DNA of 7,631 bases from a virus (Duplodnaviria > Heunggongvirae > Uroviricota > Caudoviricetes): the IMG/VR virus record IMGVR_UViG_2695420456_000026; one strand, written 5' to 3'. Below are positions 1 through 7,631 of this stretch, piece by piece (the first letter of the stretch is position 1; each line of letters starts with the position of its first letter). The position numbers and the translations under genes are program-made. The notes under the pieces are model-generated. The model made no database searches, was not told where the DNA came from, and saw only the letters and a program-made list of their open reading frames with translations.

Positions 1-513
1 CTATGTCCTTGACGTCATAGCCGACTGGCCGATAAACCGGGTCGGCGAACTGCTCCCCTGGCGCGTAGCACTGCCGACTGAATAACACATCCCCGTCAAT
101 ACGGTTCTTGCTGCACGCTTACTTTTCTTCACGGTACAGATGCGGCGCATGGTGGATTCATCCGTCAGCATTCGCATGATTTCGGTGTTCAGTTCGGGGA
201 TAACGGTATAACCACCATCAGCGGGAACGCCTGTACTCAATGCGCGGGTTTCACCTGTCAGAATGTAGTGACGTAGTTCGGCGGGGTCAGTGGTCTGGCT
301 GTTTTTGCCTGGTTTACTGCGCTCTTCGTCAGCAACGGCCTCAAGGCGGGAGATGTCTTTATCGAGGGATTCAGCTTTAGCGCGTAATTCGTCAAATTTT
401 GCGCCCTCAGCATCGTTAAGGCTGCGGTTTTCTTTTTCCGCGTTCTCCAGCATGTCGCGCATCTGATTTTTAATGGCGGTTTTCTGCTGGCGTAATTCGA
501 TTATTCTCGGCAT
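1..513 (-). CDS. Capsid-like protein, about 170 aa. Residues 1-130 resemble the N-terminal part of HK97-family major capsid proteins (coiled-coil region followed by a ...LSTGVPADGGYTVIPELNTEIMRMLTDESTMRRI... block). The C-terminal 40 aa do not look capsid-like; possibly truncated or frameshifted.
   Basis: ATG at 513 (MPRIIELRQQ...) with AGGA about 8 nt upstream; the track ORF starts further up at a GTG (561). Stop TAG at 3..1. Family resemblance is from memory of HK97-type capsid N-termini, not a search. Confidence 0.45.
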   Translation of the reverse strand: MPRIIELRQQKTAIKNQMRDMLENAEKENRSLNDAEGAKFDELRAKAESLDKDISRLEAVADEERSKPGKNSQTTDPAELRHYILTGETRALSTGVPADGGYTVIPELNTEIMRMLTDESTMRRICTVKKSKRAARTVLTGMCYSVGSATRQGSSSPTRFIGQSAMTSRT

Positions 514-543
514 AAAAAAAGTCCTGAAGTTAAGTAAGGAACT

Positions 544-669
544 CCAGGACGCGGCAAACACTCAACCGTTTTTCATAAGGAAATCAGCAATCGCACCGAT
601 CGTTTTCCCGCCTGGTAATGAATATTGGCGGGCACATTAACAGGCGGGAAAGTGGCCCCAGCGTCCTGG
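544..669. promoter_or_regulatory. Nested inverted repeats in the intergenic region upstream of the capsid-like gene: CCAGGACGC (544-552) / GCGTCCTGG (661-669) enclosing TTTCCCGCCTG (604-614) / CAGGCGGGAAA (641-651).
   Basis: Repeats read directly from the sequence; function unknown (operator, structured leader or packaging-related site). Confidence 0.3.
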
Positions 670-769
670 CACCACGGGCGAGAATAATCATGATTCAGTT
701 CGGGTAAAATATGCCGATCCGGTCAGCGAACAACGTGGAACAACCACGAACAAATAATTTACAAAACAT

Positions 770-794
770 GACAAAAAGCCGGATTGCTCCGGCT
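770..794 (-). terminator. Rho-independent terminator for the leftward operon: hairpin AGCCGGA-TTGC-TCCGGCT followed on the minus strand by TTTTTGT.
   Basis: 7-bp GC-rich stem at 777-794; the T-run on the transcribed (minus) strand is the complement of 770-776; sits 7 bp downstream of the stop codon at 801. Confidence 0.6.
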
Positions 795-800
795 GTGTGA

Positions 801-1073
801 TTATCTGTCCTGGTAATTTCGCCATATTTCATCACCAGCACCATCCATACCCATTTCGGCATAAGTGCGATCGACCGCCTTTTTCAGGTCTCCGTAATTA
901 TCCGGCGGCTCCGGTGGCCTCTGTGCCTTCCTGGAACATTCCAGCCGTCGCATCGTGATGTGATGCCGTTCCTTGTCTGTCTCCACCAGTTGCATGACTT
1001 CACCCCATCGCGCCGACGCTCTCCGGTAAAAGCCTTTCGCCTCCAGTTCTTCCGCTATGCGGTCATGTACCAT
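801..1073 (-). CDS. Small regulator-like protein, 90 aa, possibly PerC-family (motif ...AEELEAKGFYRRASARWGEVM...RRLEC...).
   Basis: ATG at 1073 preceded by GGGGTGGGGA; the track ORF starts at a GTG (1082). Stop TAA 803..801. The PerC resemblance is a recollection of the KGLWRRAA-type motif and is unverified. Confidence 0.45.
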   Translation of the reverse strand: MVHDRIAEELEAKGFYRRASARWGEVMQLVETDKERHHITMRRLECSRKAQRPPEPPDNYGDLKKAVDRTYAEMGMDGAGDEIWRNYQDR

Positions 1074-1085
1074 CGTCCCCACCCC

Positions 1086-1496
1086 TCAGAACGGAATATC
1101 ATCACCGTAAGGGTCATCGCCTCCCGCTGGTGGCTGATTACCCTGTGTGCCTGTGGTCTTGCGTCGGCTCCCACCAGGACGTGCCGCACGGGCACTGATT
1201 ACGCTGTCTGCAATAACCTGATAACCCTGCCGCGTTTCCCCGTTCTGTCCGGTCCACTGGCTGACCTGCATCGTGCCGGATACGCTGGCAACGTCGCCTT
1301 TTTGATGTTTAGCCAGGAAGTCGGCCTGCTTACCAAATGCGATGACCGATAGCCATAACGTCGCCTGTCCATCCTGTGCCTGGCTGCATGGCAGCGATAC
1401 CGCCATACGCGCCAGCGTCATCGGTGTACCCTTGCTGGTCTGTTTTACCTGCGGGTCGTCCACCAGCCGCCCGTAAGCTGCAATTTGTGCTGTCAT
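1086..1496 (-). CDS. ssb: Single-stranded DNA-binding protein (SSB), 136 aa, OB-fold with acidic C-terminal tail ending DDIPF.
   Basis: C-terminus ...GGDDPYGDDIPF is the hallmark SSB tail; Gly/Pro/Gln-rich linker before it; SD GAGGTGG 4 nt upstream of the ATG at 1496. Confidence 0.85.
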   Translation of the reverse strand: MTAQIAAYGRLVDDPQVKQTSKGTPMTLARMAVSLPCSQAQDGQATLWLSVIAFGKQADFLAKHQKGDVASVSGTMQVSQWTGQNGETRQGYQVIADSVISARAARPGGSRRKTTGTQGNQPPAGGDDPYGDDIPF

Positions 1497-1505
1497 ATTG
1501 CCACC

Positions 1506-1811
1506 TCAGTGAAGCGATCCGGCGTTGTTCTTTTTCATCTCTTCCATCATTTTTTCAGTGAGCATTACGCACTGAAAACCCATGTTTTTGATGTCTACGG
1601 GCTTCATGCCTTTATCAGTGGATATCACAGGCAGAATATCCTGATACACATCGCGGTCAGGGTAACTAAGCACACAAAGCGCCCATGATGCCACGGGTGA
1701 GGATCCTTCGTCTGTTTCAACCCACCAGCCTGGTGTAGCTGCGCTTATTTGCTGAATCGTGATCCGTCCGTTGTGCTTGTAAAGTTTTTCACCAAATTTT
1801 GGTTCGCTCAT
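1506..1811 (-). CDS. Hypothetical protein, 101 aa (MSEPKFGEKLYKHNGRITIQQ...).
   Basis: ATG at 1811 overlaps the upstream stop (ATGA overlap at 1808-1811); SD GGAGAG about 9 nt upstream; ends 9 nt before the ssb start. Confidence 0.55.
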   Translation of the reverse strand: MSEPKFGEKLYKHNGRITIQQISAATPGWWVETDEGSSPVASWALCVLSYPDRDVYQDILPVISTDKGMKPVDIKNMGFQCVMLTEKMMEEMKKNNAGSLH

Positions 1812-2059
1812 GATTCCAACTCTCCGGTTTTAACGTTGATGGTTGTTACCTGTTCCGCTTCGGCAATCTCCCGTTCTGTCAGCGTGGCAAAGTTTGCCGC
1901 CGCCGTGGTCATGAATGCGCTTATCAGGTCGGGATGTTCCTTCGCGTATCCTTCCCGCGTGTGGCGGTCTATCGTTCTGATTGCCACCTTTAAGGTGTGC
2001 TCAGTCATGTCTAACGCTTTATATTTTGGCTCTGTTCTGTCTCTGCGTTTTTGGGTCAT
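1808..2059 (-). CDS. Hypothetical protein, about 83 aa (MTQKRRDRTEPKYKALDMTEHTLKV...).
   Basis: Preferred start is the ATG at 2059 with GAGAGG upstream; the track start at 2089 lies inside the iteron array. Stop TGA 1810..1808 overlaps the next start. Confidence 0.5.
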   Translation of the reverse strand: MTQKRRDRTEPKYKALDMTEHTLKVAIRTIDRHTREGYAKEHPDLISAFMTTAAANFATLTEREIAEAEQVTTINVKTGELES

Positions 2060-2068
2060 TTCTCGCAA

Positions 2069-2261
2069 CCTCTCACTTTTTCGCCTCACTTTTTCAAGCG
2101 TCTCACTTCGTCGCAGTTGGGATTTTCGGTTTTTCTATGTGTGTGTTTCATAAGTATTTTTTTACCCCTCACTTTTGAGGATGTATACAGGTCGAAAAGT
2201 GAGGGGGAGCGGGCTAATTTTGGCCCTCTTTCTATCCCCCTCGCTTTTGCTCCTCACTTTT
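2069..2261. repeat. Candidate replication origin: at least six direct copies of the iteron (C)CTCACTTTT (cores at about 2072, 2085, 2102, 2168, 2253, plus variant CTCGCTTTT at 2240), one inverted copy (AAAAGTGAGGGG at 2195-2206), and an AT-rich stretch (2120-2164).
   Basis: Repeats read directly from the sequence; CCCCTCACTTTT (2165-2176) and its inverted copy form a 12-bp inverted repeat with an 18-bp spacer; array begins at the stop codon of the helicase gene. Confidence 0.65.
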
Positions 2262-3660
2262 ATAGCGGCGCTACATCATCCCCATCGATACGAATAACCC
2301 CATCTTTTTCCAGCTTGTACAGCCAGCGCCGGAAGTTTTTCATTTCATACCCCAGCTTTTTCATGTCATCACGTAACATCTGGATCGTGCACTTGTCGCC
2401 GTTCTGTGTGCGTGAACGGATGCACCCCCATAGCGCGGTATGGTTTTCCGTCTTGTTCCCTGCCTCCTCGATGCGCTCCAGTTCAACAGGAGGGCGCGGA
2501 TCATCCACCACCACCAGCGACGTGATTAATTCACCGTCAGCGTCGGTAAAAAGCTCCACCACGCGTAAGTCATATGCGGCTTCTTTGAGTTCCTCCGCGT
2601 CCTTCATTTTGGTGCATGAGATAACCAGCGCTTCGCTTCCTGCGTCCTCCCTGCGTATCCGGTATTCAGCATCCAGCGAAGCACGAAATGCACTGGAACC
2701 GCGCGCGCCTTTCGTCTCATCCTTGCCGGAATGGTGAACCACCAGCACCGTGGCCCCTGTGCGTCGTTTCAGTTCGTCACAACCACGGATAAACGCCCCC
2801 ATATCACGGGAATCATTTTCATCATTCCCACCAAAGCAACGCGCCAGCGTATCCAGAATAATCATGCGTACAGGTTTACCCGTTTCCCGCTCCACCTGAC
2901 GGGCAGCGATAACCATTTCATCAACATCAAGCGGGGCAGCCGGAAAGATGGGGCGGTTTACCAGATACAGATTTTTCACCTGCTCATCGTGCACAACCTC
3001 CCAGGCTTTTACACGACGCGGAACACCTATACCGCCTTCACCAACCACATAGAGAACCGCACCATGTGCAACCCTGCGGCCTCCCCACTGGCGACCAGTG
3101 GCAACATGGCACGCCCACGATCCGGCAAGGAATGATTTATAGGACCCGCTAGCCCCGTATATGCTGCATAGCGATACCGCCGGAATAATCCCCTTAACCA
3201 CGTAATCCAGTTGCGTGTCGTATCCGGTAGATCCAACGCTCATCGGTAGCGTGGTTTTTCGCTGGTGGTTTTTTTCTTCCGCCGGCTCTTTCCCGCGCAC
3301 CCGTTCCAGGTATTCGCGCCAGTTCTCCCGCATATGGCTGTGCATCCCTTCGGGGTAATAATTCGCATCAGTTACGCCCGCCGCCGCCAGCTTGTGCGCA
3401 ATGGCATTAATATTTGATGGCCTGATGTGGCCTGCCTTGTACAGCCGGACACAATAGCGCCCCTCGTCGATGATTCTCAGGTCTGCCAGTTCATCCAGTT
3501 GATCATCAGCCAGCACAATGGGAGGCACATTATCGCCAGCCAGTCGCCCGTCCTGTTCCTGCCACTGTTTCGCATGTGCCCACGCATCACTACCCGCAAA
3601 AATGATGACTTCGGTCATCTTGTCGTAAGGCTGTTTTTTTAAGTTCGGTGCGCTTTTCAT
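2260..3660 (-). CDS. Replication protein, 466 aa: RepA-like / RecA-fold helicase (AAA_25-type) C-terminal domain with an N-terminal domain of uncertain identity (possibly Toprim-like).
   Basis: P-loop-like YGASGSYKS, VLYVVGEGG, Walker-B-like MIILDTLARCF, and LVVHHSGKDETKGARGSSAFRASLD in the same order as in RSF1010 RepA-type helicases; ATG at 3660 overlaps the upstream stop (ATGA). Confidence 0.8.
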   Translation of the reverse strand: MKSAPNLKKQPYDKMTEVIIFAGSDAWAHAKQWQEQDGRLAGDNVPPIVLADDQLDELADLRIIDEGRYCVRLYKAGHIRPSNINAIAHKLAAAGVTDANYYPEGMHSHMRENWREYLERVRGKEPAEEKNHQRKTTLPMSVGSTGYDTQLDYVVKGIIPAVSLCSIYGASGSYKSFLAGSWACHVATGRQWGGRRVAHGAVLYVVGEGGIGVPRRVKAWEVVHDEQVKNLYLVNRPIFPAAPLDVDEMVIAARQVERETGKPVRMIILDTLARCFGGNDENDSRDMGAFIRGCDELKRRTGATVLVVHHSGKDETKGARGSSAFRASLDAEYRIRREDAGSEALVISCTKMKDAEELKEAAYDLRVVELFTDADGELITSLVVVDDPRPPVELERIEEAGNKTENHTALWGCIRSRTQNGDKCTIQMLRDDMKKLGYEMKNFRRWLYKLEKDGVIRIDGDDVAPL

Positions 3661-3956
3661 TTCTTGCCCCTGAATCCGTTAACCATGGTTTTCAGCTTCT
3701 GGATGTTTGCCCGTGCCCTGGCGTTGCTGGTGGGCACGTTATGCGGCGCGGTCTGTACCAGAGAAAAATCACGCCGGAACTGATAAACAGGCATCACGCA
3801 ATCATATTCGTAACCTTCACGGCGGTAGGTTACGCGCCGTTCTTCCACGCCCTTAATCATTACCGTGCCGCCGTACTGGTCGCGGTAAATATCACCGCGC
3901 GTAAATTTAGGGTGAGTGTTGCCACTGGCAGTTAAGCCAGAATATTTAAGTTTCAT
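3657..3956 (-). CDS. Hypothetical protein, 99 aa, basic C-terminus (MKLKYSGLTASGNTHPKFTRGDIYRDQYGG...).
   Basis: ATG at 3956 with SD GGAGA about 9 nt upstream; stop overlaps the helicase start codon. Confidence 0.6.
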   Translation of the reverse strand: MKLKYSGLTASGNTHPKFTRGDIYRDQYGGTVMIKGVEERRVTYRREGYEYDCVMPVYQFRRDFSLVQTAPHNVPTSNARARANIQKLKTMVNGFRGKK

Positions 3957-3961
3957 TATTT

Positions 3962-4195
3962 TTATTCTCCGGTGTGCTGTTCTTTATATCTGTCGTGCAA
4001 TAGATCTATTTCTTGCAGTTCCATTATTACAGGCTCAAGAAGCGTTATTAATGCCGTGGCAATTCTTGATTTTTGTTTGTCGCGTTCATTGTCGCCAAGT
4101 GTTTCAAGCCATATGCGCAATATTTCCAGCATGTTTTCACTGTGAGAAAGTGCAAGAAATGCGCGGTCTATTGTTTGGTGGTAAATATCACGCAT
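3962..4195 (-). CDS. Hypothetical protein, 77 aa, predicted helical (MRDIYHQTIDRAFLALSHSENMLEILRIW...).
   Basis: ATG at 4195 with SD GAGGATG upstream; start overlaps the stop of the upstream gene by 8 nt (ATGCGTGA). Confidence 0.55.
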   Translation of the reverse strand: MRDIYHQTIDRAFLALSHSENMLEILRIWLETLGDNERDKQKSRIATALITLLEPVIMELQEIDLLHDRYKEQHTGE

Positions 4196-4652
4196 GGCTT
4201 ACATCCTCAGGAAATTTTCTTCTATAACGCGCCTCTGCCACATATTCCGCATAATCGGCGGCGATATTCAGTACATCAAGCCCCGTTGATTTATATTCTC
4301 TCGTGGAAAGTAAGAAAAAAGCCGCTCTAATAAGTTCTGGCATTGACGAAAGCGCATCAGCCGCATCATCAGGAACGCCGGAAAATTCCTGTTTCAGGGA
4401 ATTAAAACGATCATCACGCATAACCCCCCCATTTTCACAATCAGCAATCAGGATAGCTTTGGCCTCATTCAGCGCCGTATCAGCACTAAATTGCATGACA
4501 GCCAGTGAGTGAGGAACGAAAGCACCGGCATATTCTGTTTCGCTGGTGGCGTGCTTATGTGCCCTGTCCGCGATAACAGAAATATCAATCAGCGCGTGCA
4601 TCAGCGTTTTGATGGCTTCGGCGGCTGCGTCCGGTGTGGTTTTATTGTGCAT
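4188..4652 (-). CDS. Hypothetical protein, 154 aa (MHNKTTPDAAAEAIKTLMHALIDISVIADRAHKH...).
   Basis: ATG at 4652 with SD GGGGA 7 nt upstream; 11-nt overlap with the preceding gene (ATGCACAATAA). Confidence 0.6.
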   Translation of the reverse strand: MHNKTTPDAAAEAIKTLMHALIDISVIADRAHKHATSETEYAGAFVPHSLAVMQFSADTALNEAKAILIADCENGGVMRDDRFNSLKQEFSGVPDDAADALSSMPELIRAAFFLLSTREYKSTGLDVLNIAADYAEYVAEARYRRKFPEDVSHA

Positions 4653-4854
4653 AAAGCATCCCCTGAATATTCGTGTTAATCATTCCGGCACGTTTTGTGA
4701 TTTCCTGTAATGATTCCCTTGTGGCGACAATTGCTTCATCTGGTAAGTGGTAATTACACACCACGCGACCTTTATCCACATTGACCAGTAGCTGCCCTGT
4801 GAATTTCTCACGAAACTGAATGCGGTTAAGGTCAGTAAGTGACAGATTAATCAT
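4642..4854 (-). CDS. Hypothetical protein, about 70 aa (MINLSLTDLNRIQFREKFTGQLLVNVDKGRVVCNYHLPDEAIV...).
   Basis: Preferred start is the ATG at 4854 with SD GGAGG 6 nt upstream; the longer track start at 4896 has no such support. Confidence 0.55.
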   Translation of the reverse strand: MINLSLTDLNRIQFREKFTGQLLVNVDKGRVVCNYHLPDEAIVATRESLQEITKRAGMINTNIQGMLYAQ

Positions 4855-5044
4855 GGCGCACCTCCTGACGAATACGGGCGGCAAATACAGCAACACAACC
4901 GGACGGGCAACGGTTACGCGCTTCGCGTTCCGTCCAGGCGGTTACGTGGATGATTTGAGATTCTCCGGCACTCAGTGCCAGAAAACGCCACACAAAGGCC
5001 GTTTGTGTGTGTACAAGGTGTGGTATATGATTTACGGCAACCAT
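4847..5044 (-). CDS. Small Cys/His-containing protein, 65 aa (MVAVNHIPHLVHTQTAFVWRF...RNRCPSGCVAVFAARIRQEVRHD); candidate first gene of the operon.
   Basis: It is the 3' end of the 314-aa track ORF, but only this part has a strong SD (AGGAG, 5-nt spacer) before an ATG (5044); stop TAA overlaps the next start by 8 nt (ATGATTAA). Confidence 0.45.
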   Translation of the reverse strand: MVAVNHIPHLVHTQTAFVWRFLALSAGESQIIHVTAWTEREARNRCPSGCVAVFAARIRQEVRHD

Positions 5045-5106
5045 AACGGCTCCTAGTTTACGTTGTTGGTTAGACGCCCCGTATGTGTTCCCAGCACTGC
5101 GGGGCG

Positions 5107-5177
5107 TTGATTTTTGTGTAATGGCAAGTACAATGGTAATTACCATGTAGGTATAGCAATAAAGGGTAATTACCATG
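5107..5177 (+). promoter_or_regulatory. Candidate sigma70 promoter (TTGATT 5107-5112, 16-bp spacer, TACAAT 5129-5134) with two operator-like copies of the perfect palindrome GGTAATTACC (5135-5144 and 5165-5174; shared 12-mer GGTAATTACCAT).
   Basis: Palindromes are 30 bp centre-to-centre; the first overlaps the -10/start region, the second ends at the RHH start codon. The divergent operon must also initiate in this 5045-5175 interval. Confidence 0.55.
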
Positions 5178-5348
5178 TCAACACCATTAGAAAAACGTTC
5201 GCCTCCATACCAAATGCGATTACCGGAAGACTTCAGAGCGCAGCTAGAAGAAGCAGCTAAGGCCGATGGCGACACATCTTTAGCCACTTGGATTAAACGC
5301 GTTCTCCGCAAAGAATTACAGCAACGCGGCATAGAACCCAAAGGATAA
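5175..5348 (+). CDS. Arc/MetJ-type ribbon-helix-helix DNA-binding protein, 57 aa (MSTPLEKRSPPYQMRLPEDFRAQLEEAAKADGDTSLATWIKRVLRKELQQRGIEPKG).
   Basis: Absent from the ORF track (under 60 aa); read by hand. The xRLPxEL...A...G.S.N..I pattern is typical of the Arc family; the palindromic operators overlap its own promoter and start. Confidence 0.7.
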   Translation: MSTPLEKRSPPYQMRLPEDFRAQLEEAAKADGDTSLATWIKRVLRKELQQRGIEPKG

Positions 5349-5405
5349 AAACTATCAGCGCCGTGGTGTGAGGTATTACGGCGCATTGCTATGCAGGACA
5401 ACACA

Positions 5406-5579
5406 ATGACCGATAAAGAATTGACCAAAACATTATCACCGGCACGGAAAAGACGGCGCAGAAAGATAGAGCATGAATCAGAAAGATTCGCGCCATGTGC
5501 TTTTGCCCTTGAGCAATTCCTTAAAGAGTACAGGGAAACGCGCCCATTGCAGGTATGGCAACGAACTGAACCAGACTGA
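5406..5579 (+). CDS. Possible small basic protein, 57 aa (MTDKELTKTLSPARKRRRRKIEHESERFAPCAFALEQFLKEYRETRPLQVWQRTEPD).
   Basis: ATG at 5406 with AGGA about 8 nt upstream (track ORF starts at the in-frame ATG 5391); lies between the RHH gene and the terminator on the same strand. No family recognised. Confidence 0.35.
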   Translation: MTDKELTKTLSPARKRRRRKIEHESERFAPCAFALEQFLKEYRETRPLQVWQRTEPD

Positions 5580-5673
5580 TAGCATTGCCCACCAGCCTGA
5601 TAGCGGCTATCATCCCCGTGCTTATGTTTGGGATCATATACACATAAGGCGCAGCGGGTTATCTGTTCAGAAA

Positions 5674-5702
5674 GGCGGCTCCATTTCGGGGCCGCTTTTT
5701 TT
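5674..5702 (+). terminator. Rho-independent terminator: GGCGGCTCC-ATTTC-GGGGCCGC followed by seven T.
   Basis: 8-bp GC-rich stem (one G-U pair), 5-nt loop, T-run 5696-5702; closes the plus-strand RHH cassette. Weaker in the opposite direction (only TTT). Confidence 0.75.
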
Positions 5703-5848
5703 ATGCCTGAAAAACCCCAATTTTGTGGTTTTCCAGTCTCACCAGGGCGAACGAATCCCCGCCCACGTTCTGGCGTATATTCAATCTTCATGGTTATAGC
5801 TCTGTGTTCAGATGATTGATGTGTGGCGGCTGTGTGCCGCCAGCGTGA

Positions 5849-6037
5849 TTAATGAACTGCCTTGCAGCTATCCTTCCAGGCCAGAACCTCGGATAAAAAC
5901 CAGCCAACGGAACGACCGCCAAGTTTACGACGTGATGGGAATTGTCCGGCCTTTTCCAGGCGGTAGCGACACGTACGGCTAAGGCCGGTTAGTTTTTCGC
6001 ATTCTTTTTCACGTATAAACCGATCAGTGCTTAACAC
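5849..6037 (-). CDS. alpA: AlpA-family phage regulatory protein (MerR-like HTH; Xis/Vis-like), 62 aa.
   Basis: ...ECEKLTGLSRTCRYRLEKAGQFPSRRKLGGRSVGWFLSEVLAW is the typical AlpA HTH block; GTG start at 6037 with AGGGGG 5 nt upstream; located just downstream of int. Confidence 0.85.
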   Translation of the reverse strand: MLSTDRFIREKECEKLTGLSRTCRYRLEKAGQFPSRRKLGGRSVGWFLSEVLAWKDSCKAVH

Positions 6038-6309
6038 TATTGCCCCCTTTCGTTTCTTAAAGAGTCATCAGGTGTCTTATTGTGTCGTATTGTTCCCGCT
6101 AGAGTGATGAATGGCAAATACTGAGGATGTATGATTTACAGAAAATGAAAAAGTAAGAATAAAATCTTTTAAATTCATGTTAATACAAAGGCATAAAATA
6201 TTGTTCCATGCCTTTTTTCTCGCTCTTTAAAGAGTGATTCGCTAGTGTATAAAAAACCAGTAACACATTAAAAATCAGCTACTTATAAATCCGTACGCTT
6301 TTTCGCCTC

Positions 6310-6362
6310 TTGTTCGTAGTTGTTCCACATTGTTGCTCATTGTTGCACGTTGTATCTGTTCG
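6310..6362. repeat. Five to six phased 10-bp tandem repeats, TTGTT(C/G)C-like (TTGTTCGTAG, TTGTTCCACA, TTGTTGCTCA, TTGTTGCACG, TTGTATCTGTTCG), between the int 3' end and alpA.
   Basis: Exact 10-bp periodicity read from the sequence; phasing places every copy on one face of the helix, which suggests a protein-binding array. Confidence 0.5.
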
Positions 6363-6368
6363 CATATC

Positions 6369-6384
6369 CAGTATGCGCATACTG
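6369..6384. promoter_or_regulatory. Perfect 16-bp palindrome CAGTATGCGCATACTG, 18 bp downstream of the int stop codon.
   Basis: Self-complementary over all 16 positions; no T-run follows on either strand, so more likely a dimer binding site than a terminator. Confidence 0.4.
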
Positions 6385-6401
6385 AAAAAACACGAAAAAA
6401 A

Positions 6402-7631
6402 TTATTTTCTTCTGGCTACTGGTAGCGTGGTTACGTTTTCATGTGTTCCCGCCAGTATCCCTAACCGCTCCGTCCACATATCCAGCGCATTGCGTTTCGC
6501 ATCCAGATAACGGGAATGATTATAAACTCGCTGCATTCCTGGCATCTGGTGGCCTGTAAGCTGCTCCACGACATGCGGATCAACGCCTAAATCGTTCAGC
6601 ATGGTTGTAAAGGTGCGCCGGATGTCATGCAGTGACCAGTGAGGGTGATTAAGCCTCCTGTGCGCTAATCTTCCATACTGCGATACGCTGGCCTCCTGTT
6701 TCACTTCCCCCAGCAATAAGCCCGTGTGCCTGTTCTGCTCCACCAGCTGCGTGATGAACGGCAGTATTGCTTCCGGTATAGGCCGGAATATGGCTACCTT
6801 CGTTTTGCTGTGCTCCTTCGGAACGGTCCAGAGCATTTCGGTAAAATCCCACTCGCTGATCTCCGATAACCTCAGTTCTACCGTCCGGCATCCGAACACA
6901 ATCAGGAGGCGGATTAACGCGATGTAGTAGGGGGAGAATATTTTTTTGTCCAGTGCCTGCAATAATTCGCCCAGTTCTTTGGTGCTTAAGACACGCTCGC
7001 TTATATCCGGTTTTTTCCCAACGTCCGCCACACTCATATCATCAAGAACGTTGCTGATTGCATAGCGCCGCCTCCGGCAGAACTTAAGCGCCTGTTTGCA
7101 CGTCTGTAGCAAGAATCCGGCAGTAACAGGCGTTCGCTTTGCCACCTGGTCAAAACAGGCCAGCCAGTGCCGTAGCTCGCATTTATCCAGCGGCATAGCA
7201 CCAATGTGCTGTATTACGTGATTATTAAGGCGCTTTTTCAGGGCGGCATAATCCACGCGGTTTTCCTTTGCGTACGACTCAAGCCAGTAGGTGAGCGCAT
7301 CGCCAACCGTTACCGGCTTTAACGCTTCCTGTACGGTGTAATTAAGCTCATGACGTGGATTTTTCCCCTCTGCCAGCCATGCGCGACACTGGGCGGCTTT
7401 TTCCCTGGCTGATTTCAGGCTCAGATCAGGATAATTTCCCAGCTTAATGCGTTCCGGTGGTGCCCCCCTTCCCGTTCCGGCCCTGTAAGTGAAATACCAG
7501 GTTAAAAGGCCACTGGTTGAATGCCTGACGCTCAGGTTTCCACCGTCATTAAGAAAGGCTGTTTTTTGGGCGGGTGTGCCGTTGATTTTCCTCAGCTGTG
7601 TATCGCTCAGTTTGTTAAGTGCTCTGCTCAT
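6402..7631 (-). CDS. int: Tyrosine recombinase, P4-family phage integrase with N-terminal arm-binding domain, 409 aa.
   Basis: N-terminal ...GNLSVRHSTSGLLTWYFTYR... arm-binding block; catalytic-domain residues in ...HDIRRTF... and ...VYNHSRYLD... (candidate Tyr). ATG is the last three bases of the window, so the true start or att site may lie beyond it. Confidence 0.9.
   Translation of the reverse strand: MSRALNKLSDTQLRKINGTPAQKTAFLNDGGNLSVRHSTSGLLTWYFTYRAGTGRGAPPERIKLGNYPDLSLKSAREKAAQCRAWLAEGKNPRHELNYTVQEALKPVTVGDALTYWLESYAKENRVDYAALKKRLNNHVIQHIGAMPLDKCELRHWLACFDQVAKRTPVTAGFLLQTCKQALKFCRRRRYAISNVLDDMSVADVGKKPDISERVLSTKELGELLQALDKKIFSPYYIALIRLLIVFGCRTVELRLSEISEWDFTEMLWTVPKEHSKTKVAIFRPIPEAILPFITQLVEQNRHTGLLLGEVKQEASVSQYGRLAHRRLNHPHWSLHDIRRTFTTMLNDLGVDPHVVEQLTGHQMPGMQRVYNHSRYLDAKRNALDMWTERLGILAGTHENVTTLPVARRK

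Follow-up and report, generated by a model that had tools for sequence, protein, structure and literature searches.

A short capsid-like reading frame in an EcCIEDL933-family satellite, probably truncated by an ISEc22-type insertion

Introduction

EcCIEDL933 is the prototype capsid-forming PICI, or cf-PICI (10.1101/2022.09.08.507074; PMC10085698). Its capsid protein has the HK97 fold and builds a T=4 shell, and during maturation residues 1–92 are cut off, leaving a mature protein that starts at residue 93 in the motif SxGxxAD, which is also found in HK97 (10.1101/2025.02.11.637232). Other satellites encode capsid-size redirectors; SaPI CpmB, SaPIbov5 Ccm and P4 Sid are encoded by conserved, intact genes and target the capsid proteins of the helper (10.1101/2022.09.08.507074).

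The locus considered here lies at the left edge of a 7,631-nt stretch of viral DNA (IMG/VR record IMGVR_UViG_2695420456_000026; 'the window'), where a minus-strand ORF of 170 codons begins like an HK97-type capsid protein and is far shorter than one. The original prediction allowed two readings: (a) a stand-alone scaffold or delta-domain mimic that could redirect helper capsid assembly and (b) a frameshifted or truncated capsid gene. The ORF is almost certainly a chimeric pseudogene fragment, created when an ISEc22-type element of the IS66 family inserted into the major capsid gene of an EcCIEDL933-family cf-PICI. The capsid gene, the cf-PICI family and the IS are all previously known, and the insertion allele is rare but trivial.

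Results

The features located in the window are collected in Table 1. A left-end integrase, an AlpA-type regulator and a replication module, as expected of a cf-PICI, are all present. When window positions 1–1100 were compared by megablast with 5,426 complete E. coli genomes, 349 long matches were obtained; the best matches listed all start at query position 123, the top one being strain FORC_042 (99.9%). The FORC_042 island (NZ_CP025318.1, 2.873–2.887 Mb) is roughly 14 kb long and lies between phoQ and roxA/pepT. Its first part encodes an integrase, an AlpA-type regulator, a RepA-like helicase, an SSB and a PerC-like protein; next come a 385-aa "phage major capsid protein", an HK97-type prohead protease, portal, head closure, head–tail connector, HNH, TerS and TerL. 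The window shares gene order and replication module with this island, with DNA identities of 99.3% over positions 123–5119 and 96.6% over 5651–7631. E. coli O157:H7 EDL933 has an island, EcCIEDL933, that is built in the same way and occupies the chromosomal site used in FORC_042. No tail or holin genes are found in the window, nor in the FORC_042 and EDL933 islands between phoQ and roxA. As for packaging genes of its own, the window holds only the 5′ fragment of the capsid gene; evidence for the 3′ part comes from a 285-aa junction protein described below, and the remaining packaging genes are those of the near-identical FORC_042 and EDL933 islands. The window island belongs to the known cf-PICI family typified by EcCIEDL933 and is integrated between roxA/pepT and phoQ in E. 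coli.

Table 1. Coordinates of features in the 7,631-nt window
Feature	Position	Strand	Description or basis
Chimeric ORF	1–513	minus	ATG 513–511, TAG 3–1, 170 codons (translation)
cf-PICI HK97-fold major capsid gene, 5′ fragment	123–513	minus	391 nt: codons 1–130 and first base of codon 131
Delta (scaffolding) domain, codons 1–92	238–513	minus	Removed by prohead protease in the intact protein
First 38 residues of mature capsid (putative N-arm region), codons 93–130	124–237	minus	PF05065 match
Read-through tail	1–122	minus	Residues 131–170 = SKRAARTVLTGMCYSVGSATRQGSSSPTRFIGQSAMTSRT, TAG 3–1; IS DNA, non-capsid
8-bp target site, right-hand copy of target-site duplication	123–130		TTTTCTTC (GAAGAAAA in capsid sense); compare three complete copies
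IS66-family right end (ISEc22 type; 2,454 bp when complete)	1–122	plus	Identity to reference copies
Terminal inverted-repeat tip GTAAGCGT	122–115	minus	Same tips in complete copies
IS66-family transposase (tnpC), last 27 codons and TAA	2–85	plus	Translation = YVLDVIADWPINRVGELLPWRVALPTE*
Terminator-like hairpin and T7 run	521–550	minus	Terminator scan; abuts capsid ATG
PerC-like	801–1082	minus	Pfam, E = 3e-43
SSB	1086–1496	minus	Pfam
RepA-like AAA_25 helicase, 466 aa	2260–3660	minus	Pfam
DUF4222	3657–3956	minus	Pfam
AlpA	5849–6037	minus	Pfam
Tyrosine integrase	6402–7631	minus	Pfam

Two regions differ from one or other of these islands. Window positions 5120–5650 cannot be aligned to the FORC_042 island, which is 96–99% identical elsewhere. 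A 314-aa minus-strand ORF in this area (4847–5791) has an odd composition rich in Cys, Ser and Arg, and its last 65 codons (4847–5044) correspond to a gene that FORC_042 and EDL933 have under the annotation 'Icd-like'. It is overlapped by small ORFs on the plus strand (5175–5579), one of which (5175–5348) resembles a ribbon–helix–helix protein by eye. None of the ORFs in the divergent 4850–5800 region, this plus-strand ORF included, matched a Pfam family, and an Rfam scan of the window was likewise negative. The replication module is also mosaic within the family, with an AAA_25 RepA-like helicase in the window and FORC_042 versus a 710-aa DUF927 protein in EcCIEDL933 (L007 12112–14244); the regions that flank the swapped module (int/alpA and capsid) are 96–98% identical.

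The capsid part of the ORF can be defined to the nucleotide. DNA alignment shows window positions 123–513 to be identical to the intact FORC_042 capsid gene save for one synonymous mismatch. Residues 1–130 are 100% identical to the N-terminus of the intact 385-aa FORC_042 protein, making the earlier observation that the first ~130 residues look capsid-like exact, and they agree with the EcCIEDL933 capsid protein at 127 of 130 positions. The FORC_042 gene is uninterrupted over 1,158 bp, whereas the window copy is interrupted. The intact FORC_042 protein matches PDB entry 9GYI over residues 1–385 (E = 2e-254), and the 'Major head protein' chain of that entry is identical in sequence to the EcCIEDL933 capsid protein from E. 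coli O157:H7 EDL933. Via FORC_042 residues 1–130 and 9GYI, the ORF is thus homologous to a capsid protein whose HK97-fold structure has been solved. The sequence STGVPAD occupies ORF residues 93–99 and conforms to the conserved maturation-site motif SxGxxAD. The ORF and the EcCIEDL933 capsid gene have in common the delta domain, SxGxxAD at residues 93–99, the upstream hairpin and the roxA/phoQ site.

Relative to the EcCIEDL933 capsid, residues 131 onward of the 385-aa protein are missing, and positions 39–280 of the 280 in PF05065 are unmatched. Going by the published domain order of EcCIEDL933 and HK97, codons 93–130 would correspond to the N-arm, and the missing portion would include the E-loop, P-domain, A-domain, G-loop and connector loop; codons 93–130 are all of the HK97 fold that is left in the ORF. 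The Pfam match to PF05065 (Phage_capsid) covers residues 100–136 only, equivalent to profile positions 1–38 of 280, and its score of 22.5 bits (E = 8.4e-5) falls just below the cut-off of 24.2 bits, so that the 170-aa ORF gives no full-profile match above the curated threshold. Beyond K130, protein alignment reveals no similarity of the ORF to the intact capsid protein. Judged by these alignments, the 170-aa ORF is a fragment of an HK97-fold capsid member and not a complete member.

Window position 123 is the last that matches the intact FORC_042 capsid gene; identity stops sharply there, and the DNA alignment continues with GTAAGCGTGCAGC; in the capsid sense, the bases after the junction are GTAAGCGTGCAGCAAGAACC... 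The DNA on the other side belongs to an insertion sequence. Window positions 1–122 match the right end of an ISEc22 copy in strain AST205 with 100% identity, and position 85 is the point at which the annotated ISEc22-family transposase CDS ends (reference copy L002, 3585). A query of window positions 1–135 matches thousands of E. coli sites, all annotated as "IS66-like element ISEc22 family transposase" and located beside unrelated genes, and the IS-end sequence is present in 2,109 of the 5,426 complete E. coli genomes, plasmids included. Four independent insertion contexts have the terminus ...GCACGCTTAC in common and diverge directly after it. Since positions 1–122 are an IS end with the 3′ end of tnpC, residues 131–170 of the ORF are IS read-through.

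Complete copies were compared at three sites, in cybC, a tape-measure gene and trbC; each measures 2,454 bp, has GTAAGCGT as its tip on either side and is flanked by an 8-bp target duplication. The window end has the terminal inverted repeat beginning GTAAGCG that is expected of IS66/ISEc22. From the tnpA–tnpB–tnpC set, the window holds only the last 27 codons of tnpC, the full set being found in the reference copies with the identical end. The window holds 122 of the 2,454 nt of ISEc22, among them the GTAAGCGT tip and the stop codon of the transposase; the remainder is missing owing to the assembly break.

Some matches of the IS-end query reach positions 131–135, which raised the possibility of a different IS terminus. 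This was rejected, as the four contexts share ...GCTTAC and then diverge. The BLAST matches of the IS end run spuriously 9–13 nt into capsid DNA because the target sites are T-rich. Reading outward from the right end, the ISEc22 targets are T-rich in five of five cases: TTTTCTTC, TTTTATTC, TATTGTCT, ATTTCATC and GGTTTTTC (window 123–130; L002 3623–3630; and L004, L005 and L006, each at 3323–3330). This suggests a target preference, and the 8-bp T-rich target in the capsid gene is like those of the other ISEc22 copies.

If the capsid gene was interrupted by a simple transposition, the other half of the gene should follow the left end of the IS. We constructed the predicted reciprocal junction in the capsid sense by joining the IS left end, reverse-complemented (...GACGACGCTTAC), to GAAGAAAA and capsid nucleotide 392 onward. 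The predicted ORF is 285 aa long, starts at an ATG inside the IS, reads MDSVHHIWCPLFSQEFQDLPDGAETTLT-KKISSNEF... across the junction and carries capsid codons 129–385. Only with the 8-bp duplication does the ATG in the IS share a frame with the rest of the capsid gene. The exact 285-aa protein, in its FORC_042-type variant, exists in public E. coli records (CTV37241.1 / CTV70975.1) on two contigs of up to 118 kb, whereas three other variants of the predicted protein are absent from the public collection by exact-sequence look-up. The window ORF protein (CTW34291.1 / CTW84197.1) is likewise on two contigs and bears the same product name as the 285-aa protein, although the accession series differ (CTV for the 285-aa protein and CTW for the window ORF). 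The exactness of the prediction, the equal contig counts and the identical submitter product name strongly suggest that both junctions come from the same two assemblies. That the predicted protein exists exactly argues for a simple insertion with target-site duplication in which both halves were retained. The left-hand copy of the duplication would follow from this exact match, the junction protein being in frame only with the duplication. The 8-bp target-site duplication of IS66/ISEc22 is thus seen directly in the three complete copies and, for the present insertion, deduced from the junction protein.

The left boundary of the window has a technical origin. The source contig, CYCZ01000062.1 (E. 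coli GCA_001283765.1), is 100% identical to the window and ends 6 nt past window position 1 (L003 10514–10519), that is, 128 nt inside the IS. This length fits a k-mer-sized overlap at a collapsed repeat, and the window edge is an assembly artefact and no biological boundary; the window and the contig end at the IS because the short-read assembly collapsed at this multicopy element. On the other side of the contig, roxA and pepT lie beside the integrase, an attachment site shared with FORC_042 and EDL933. The window spans exactly from the ORF stop to the integrase ATG at 7631 and was evidently cut at gene boundaries. The ORF does end at the window edge after 170 codons, precisely as had been described.

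The truncated allele is rare. A junction-spanning megablast gave no full-length match to the capsid–IS junction in the 5,426 complete E. coli genomes, and an exact scan of the GTDB species-representative genomes found none. The exact 170-aa protein is recorded on two contigs in the public protein collection. By comparison, the capsid gene is present in one place at ≥80% coverage in 358 of the 361 complete E. coli genomes that carry it, and the best 120 homolog clusters, from Enterobacterales, are all 380–410 aa. The other short members of the 90% cluster of the ORF are labelled 'partial' and have arbitrary lengths of 41–120 aa, consistent with contig-end fragments. As far as these surveys go, the truncation is a rare insertion allele, with no sign of a conserved short form.

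Discussion

An ISEc22-type element lies within capsid codons 128–131, at window position 122/123, in the orientation opposite to that of the capsid gene. The other 255 capsid codons would then lie on the far side of the 2,454-bp IS, after the 8-bp target duplication. Given the opposite orientation of the IS, translation from the native start would yield the delta domain (residues 1–92), 38 residues of the mature protein and 40 IS-derived residues. No sequence evidence contradicting the insertion was found in this analysis.

This outcome divides the second reading of the original prediction, in that the capsid gene is indeed truncated but by an IS66-family element at 122/123 and not by a frameshift or indel near 60–120. 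Had a frameshift or sequencing indel been responsible, the rest of the capsid gene would be read in the second minus-strand frame, between position ~118 and the start of the window. Translation of the minus strand of 1–513 in all three frames does recover that frame, open over about 1–118 and reading ...APGEQFADPVYRPVGYDVKDI as reported, but it lies wholly inside the IS end at 1–122, where the DNA is 100% IS, and it runs antisense to the 3′ end of the transposase gene, which encodes the transposase C-terminus. It is therefore IS sequence and cannot serve as the capsid continuation. The real continuation in the intact protein (ISSNEFKQLVSAGGATVNHGEEGK..., beginning ISSNEFKQLV...) has nothing in common with it, and DNA identity falls to background exactly at 122/123, where an indel would merely shift the frame. 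We consider the chance of a frameshift negligible. The case envisaged as a refutation, an ordinary full-length capsid gene disrupted by a sequencing error, is essentially what is found, except that the disruption is a real transposition. A mis-join that produced an assembly chimera, or an IS-mediated deletion of the remaining capsid gene together with the packaging module, might be suspected given that the contig ends inside a multicopy repeat, so that the window by itself hides what follows. Yet the join falls at the exact canonical IS tip, each junction ORF is found on two contigs, and the reciprocal junction protein, with the 8-bp duplication and all 255 remaining capsid codons, is on a contig of up to 118 kb. 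Either event is very unlikely.

The first reading, in which selection maintains the 170-aa product as a small functional protein for redirecting the assembly of helper or satellite capsids, draws on the completeness of what was left behind. The fragment retains its native start and upstream region, the whole delta domain and the cleavage motif, and it could in principle be expressed. It also has a superficial likeness to Ccm, which is satellite-encoded and derived from an HK97-type capsid protein as this fragment is. The comparison goes no further, however, since the window ORF is the satellite's own capsid gene, truncated by an IS in a rare allele and extended by a 40-residue IS tail, whereas CpmB, Ccm and Sid are conserved, intact stand-alone genes across islands. 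Its C-terminal boundary is the IS terminus and there is no conserved stop; the junction occurs in 0 of 5,426 complete E. coli genomes and in none of the species representatives, and the ORF is on two contigs; the best 120 homolog clusters are of full length, and short cluster members are 'partial'. Moreover, the insertion that created the ORF also destroyed its natural partner, the island's own full-length capsid protein. Homolog and junction surveys turned up no signs of selection or function in the 170-aa ORF, and a mimic of this kind is extremely unlikely.

The consequences of the ISEc22-type insertion can be anticipated from work on the prototype. Single mutation of the packaging-module genes of EcCIEDL933 abolishes transfer, gene 1792 excepted, and leaves replication unaffected (10.1101/2022.09.08.507074), and single point mutations in the capsid protein abolish or strongly reduce transfer (10.1101/2025.02.11.637232). 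By analogy with these mutants, the island should still integrate, excise and replicate, yet fail to package itself; self-encapsidation and transfer have probably been lost. The truncated product, having no capsid sequence from residue 131, is not expected to form capsomers, and the 2.45-kb insertion is probably polar on the protease, portal and later genes. One could imagine that the truncated product, expressed on induction from the native late promoter, acts as a dominant-negative decoy scaffold, poisoning the capsid assembly of co-resident related cf-PICIs or of HK97-type helper phages. If so, a dead satellite would have become an accidental interference factor, but we regard this as exceedingly doubtful.

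The appearance of a mini-capsid gene is thus that of the stump of a known, structure-solved capsid gene cut by a common IS, a clean negative. As a single case of IS-mediated inactivation, and likely immobilization, of a cf-PICI, it is in keeping with the expected background decay of mobile elements. For genome scans, the practical implication is that ORFs ending at contig or window edges near GTAAGCG-type tips need an IS-junction check before they are interpreted.

Two further observations concern the region between the replication module and the capsid gene. Genes for a PerC-family transcriptional activator and an SSB are located there (801–1496, minus strand); PerC homologues resemble virulence regulators. 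The hairpin at 521–550, which separates the PerC-like gene from the packaging operon, has an 11-bp stem and an RNA minimum free energy of −16 kcal/mol (z = −3.9) and plays no part in the truncation. The FORC_042 island has the identical hairpin, and that of EcCIEDL933 differs by two changes in the 3′ arm, which convert one G–U pair to G–C and break one A–U pair. Its position suggests that the hairpin could function in antitermination or attenuation control of the late genes.
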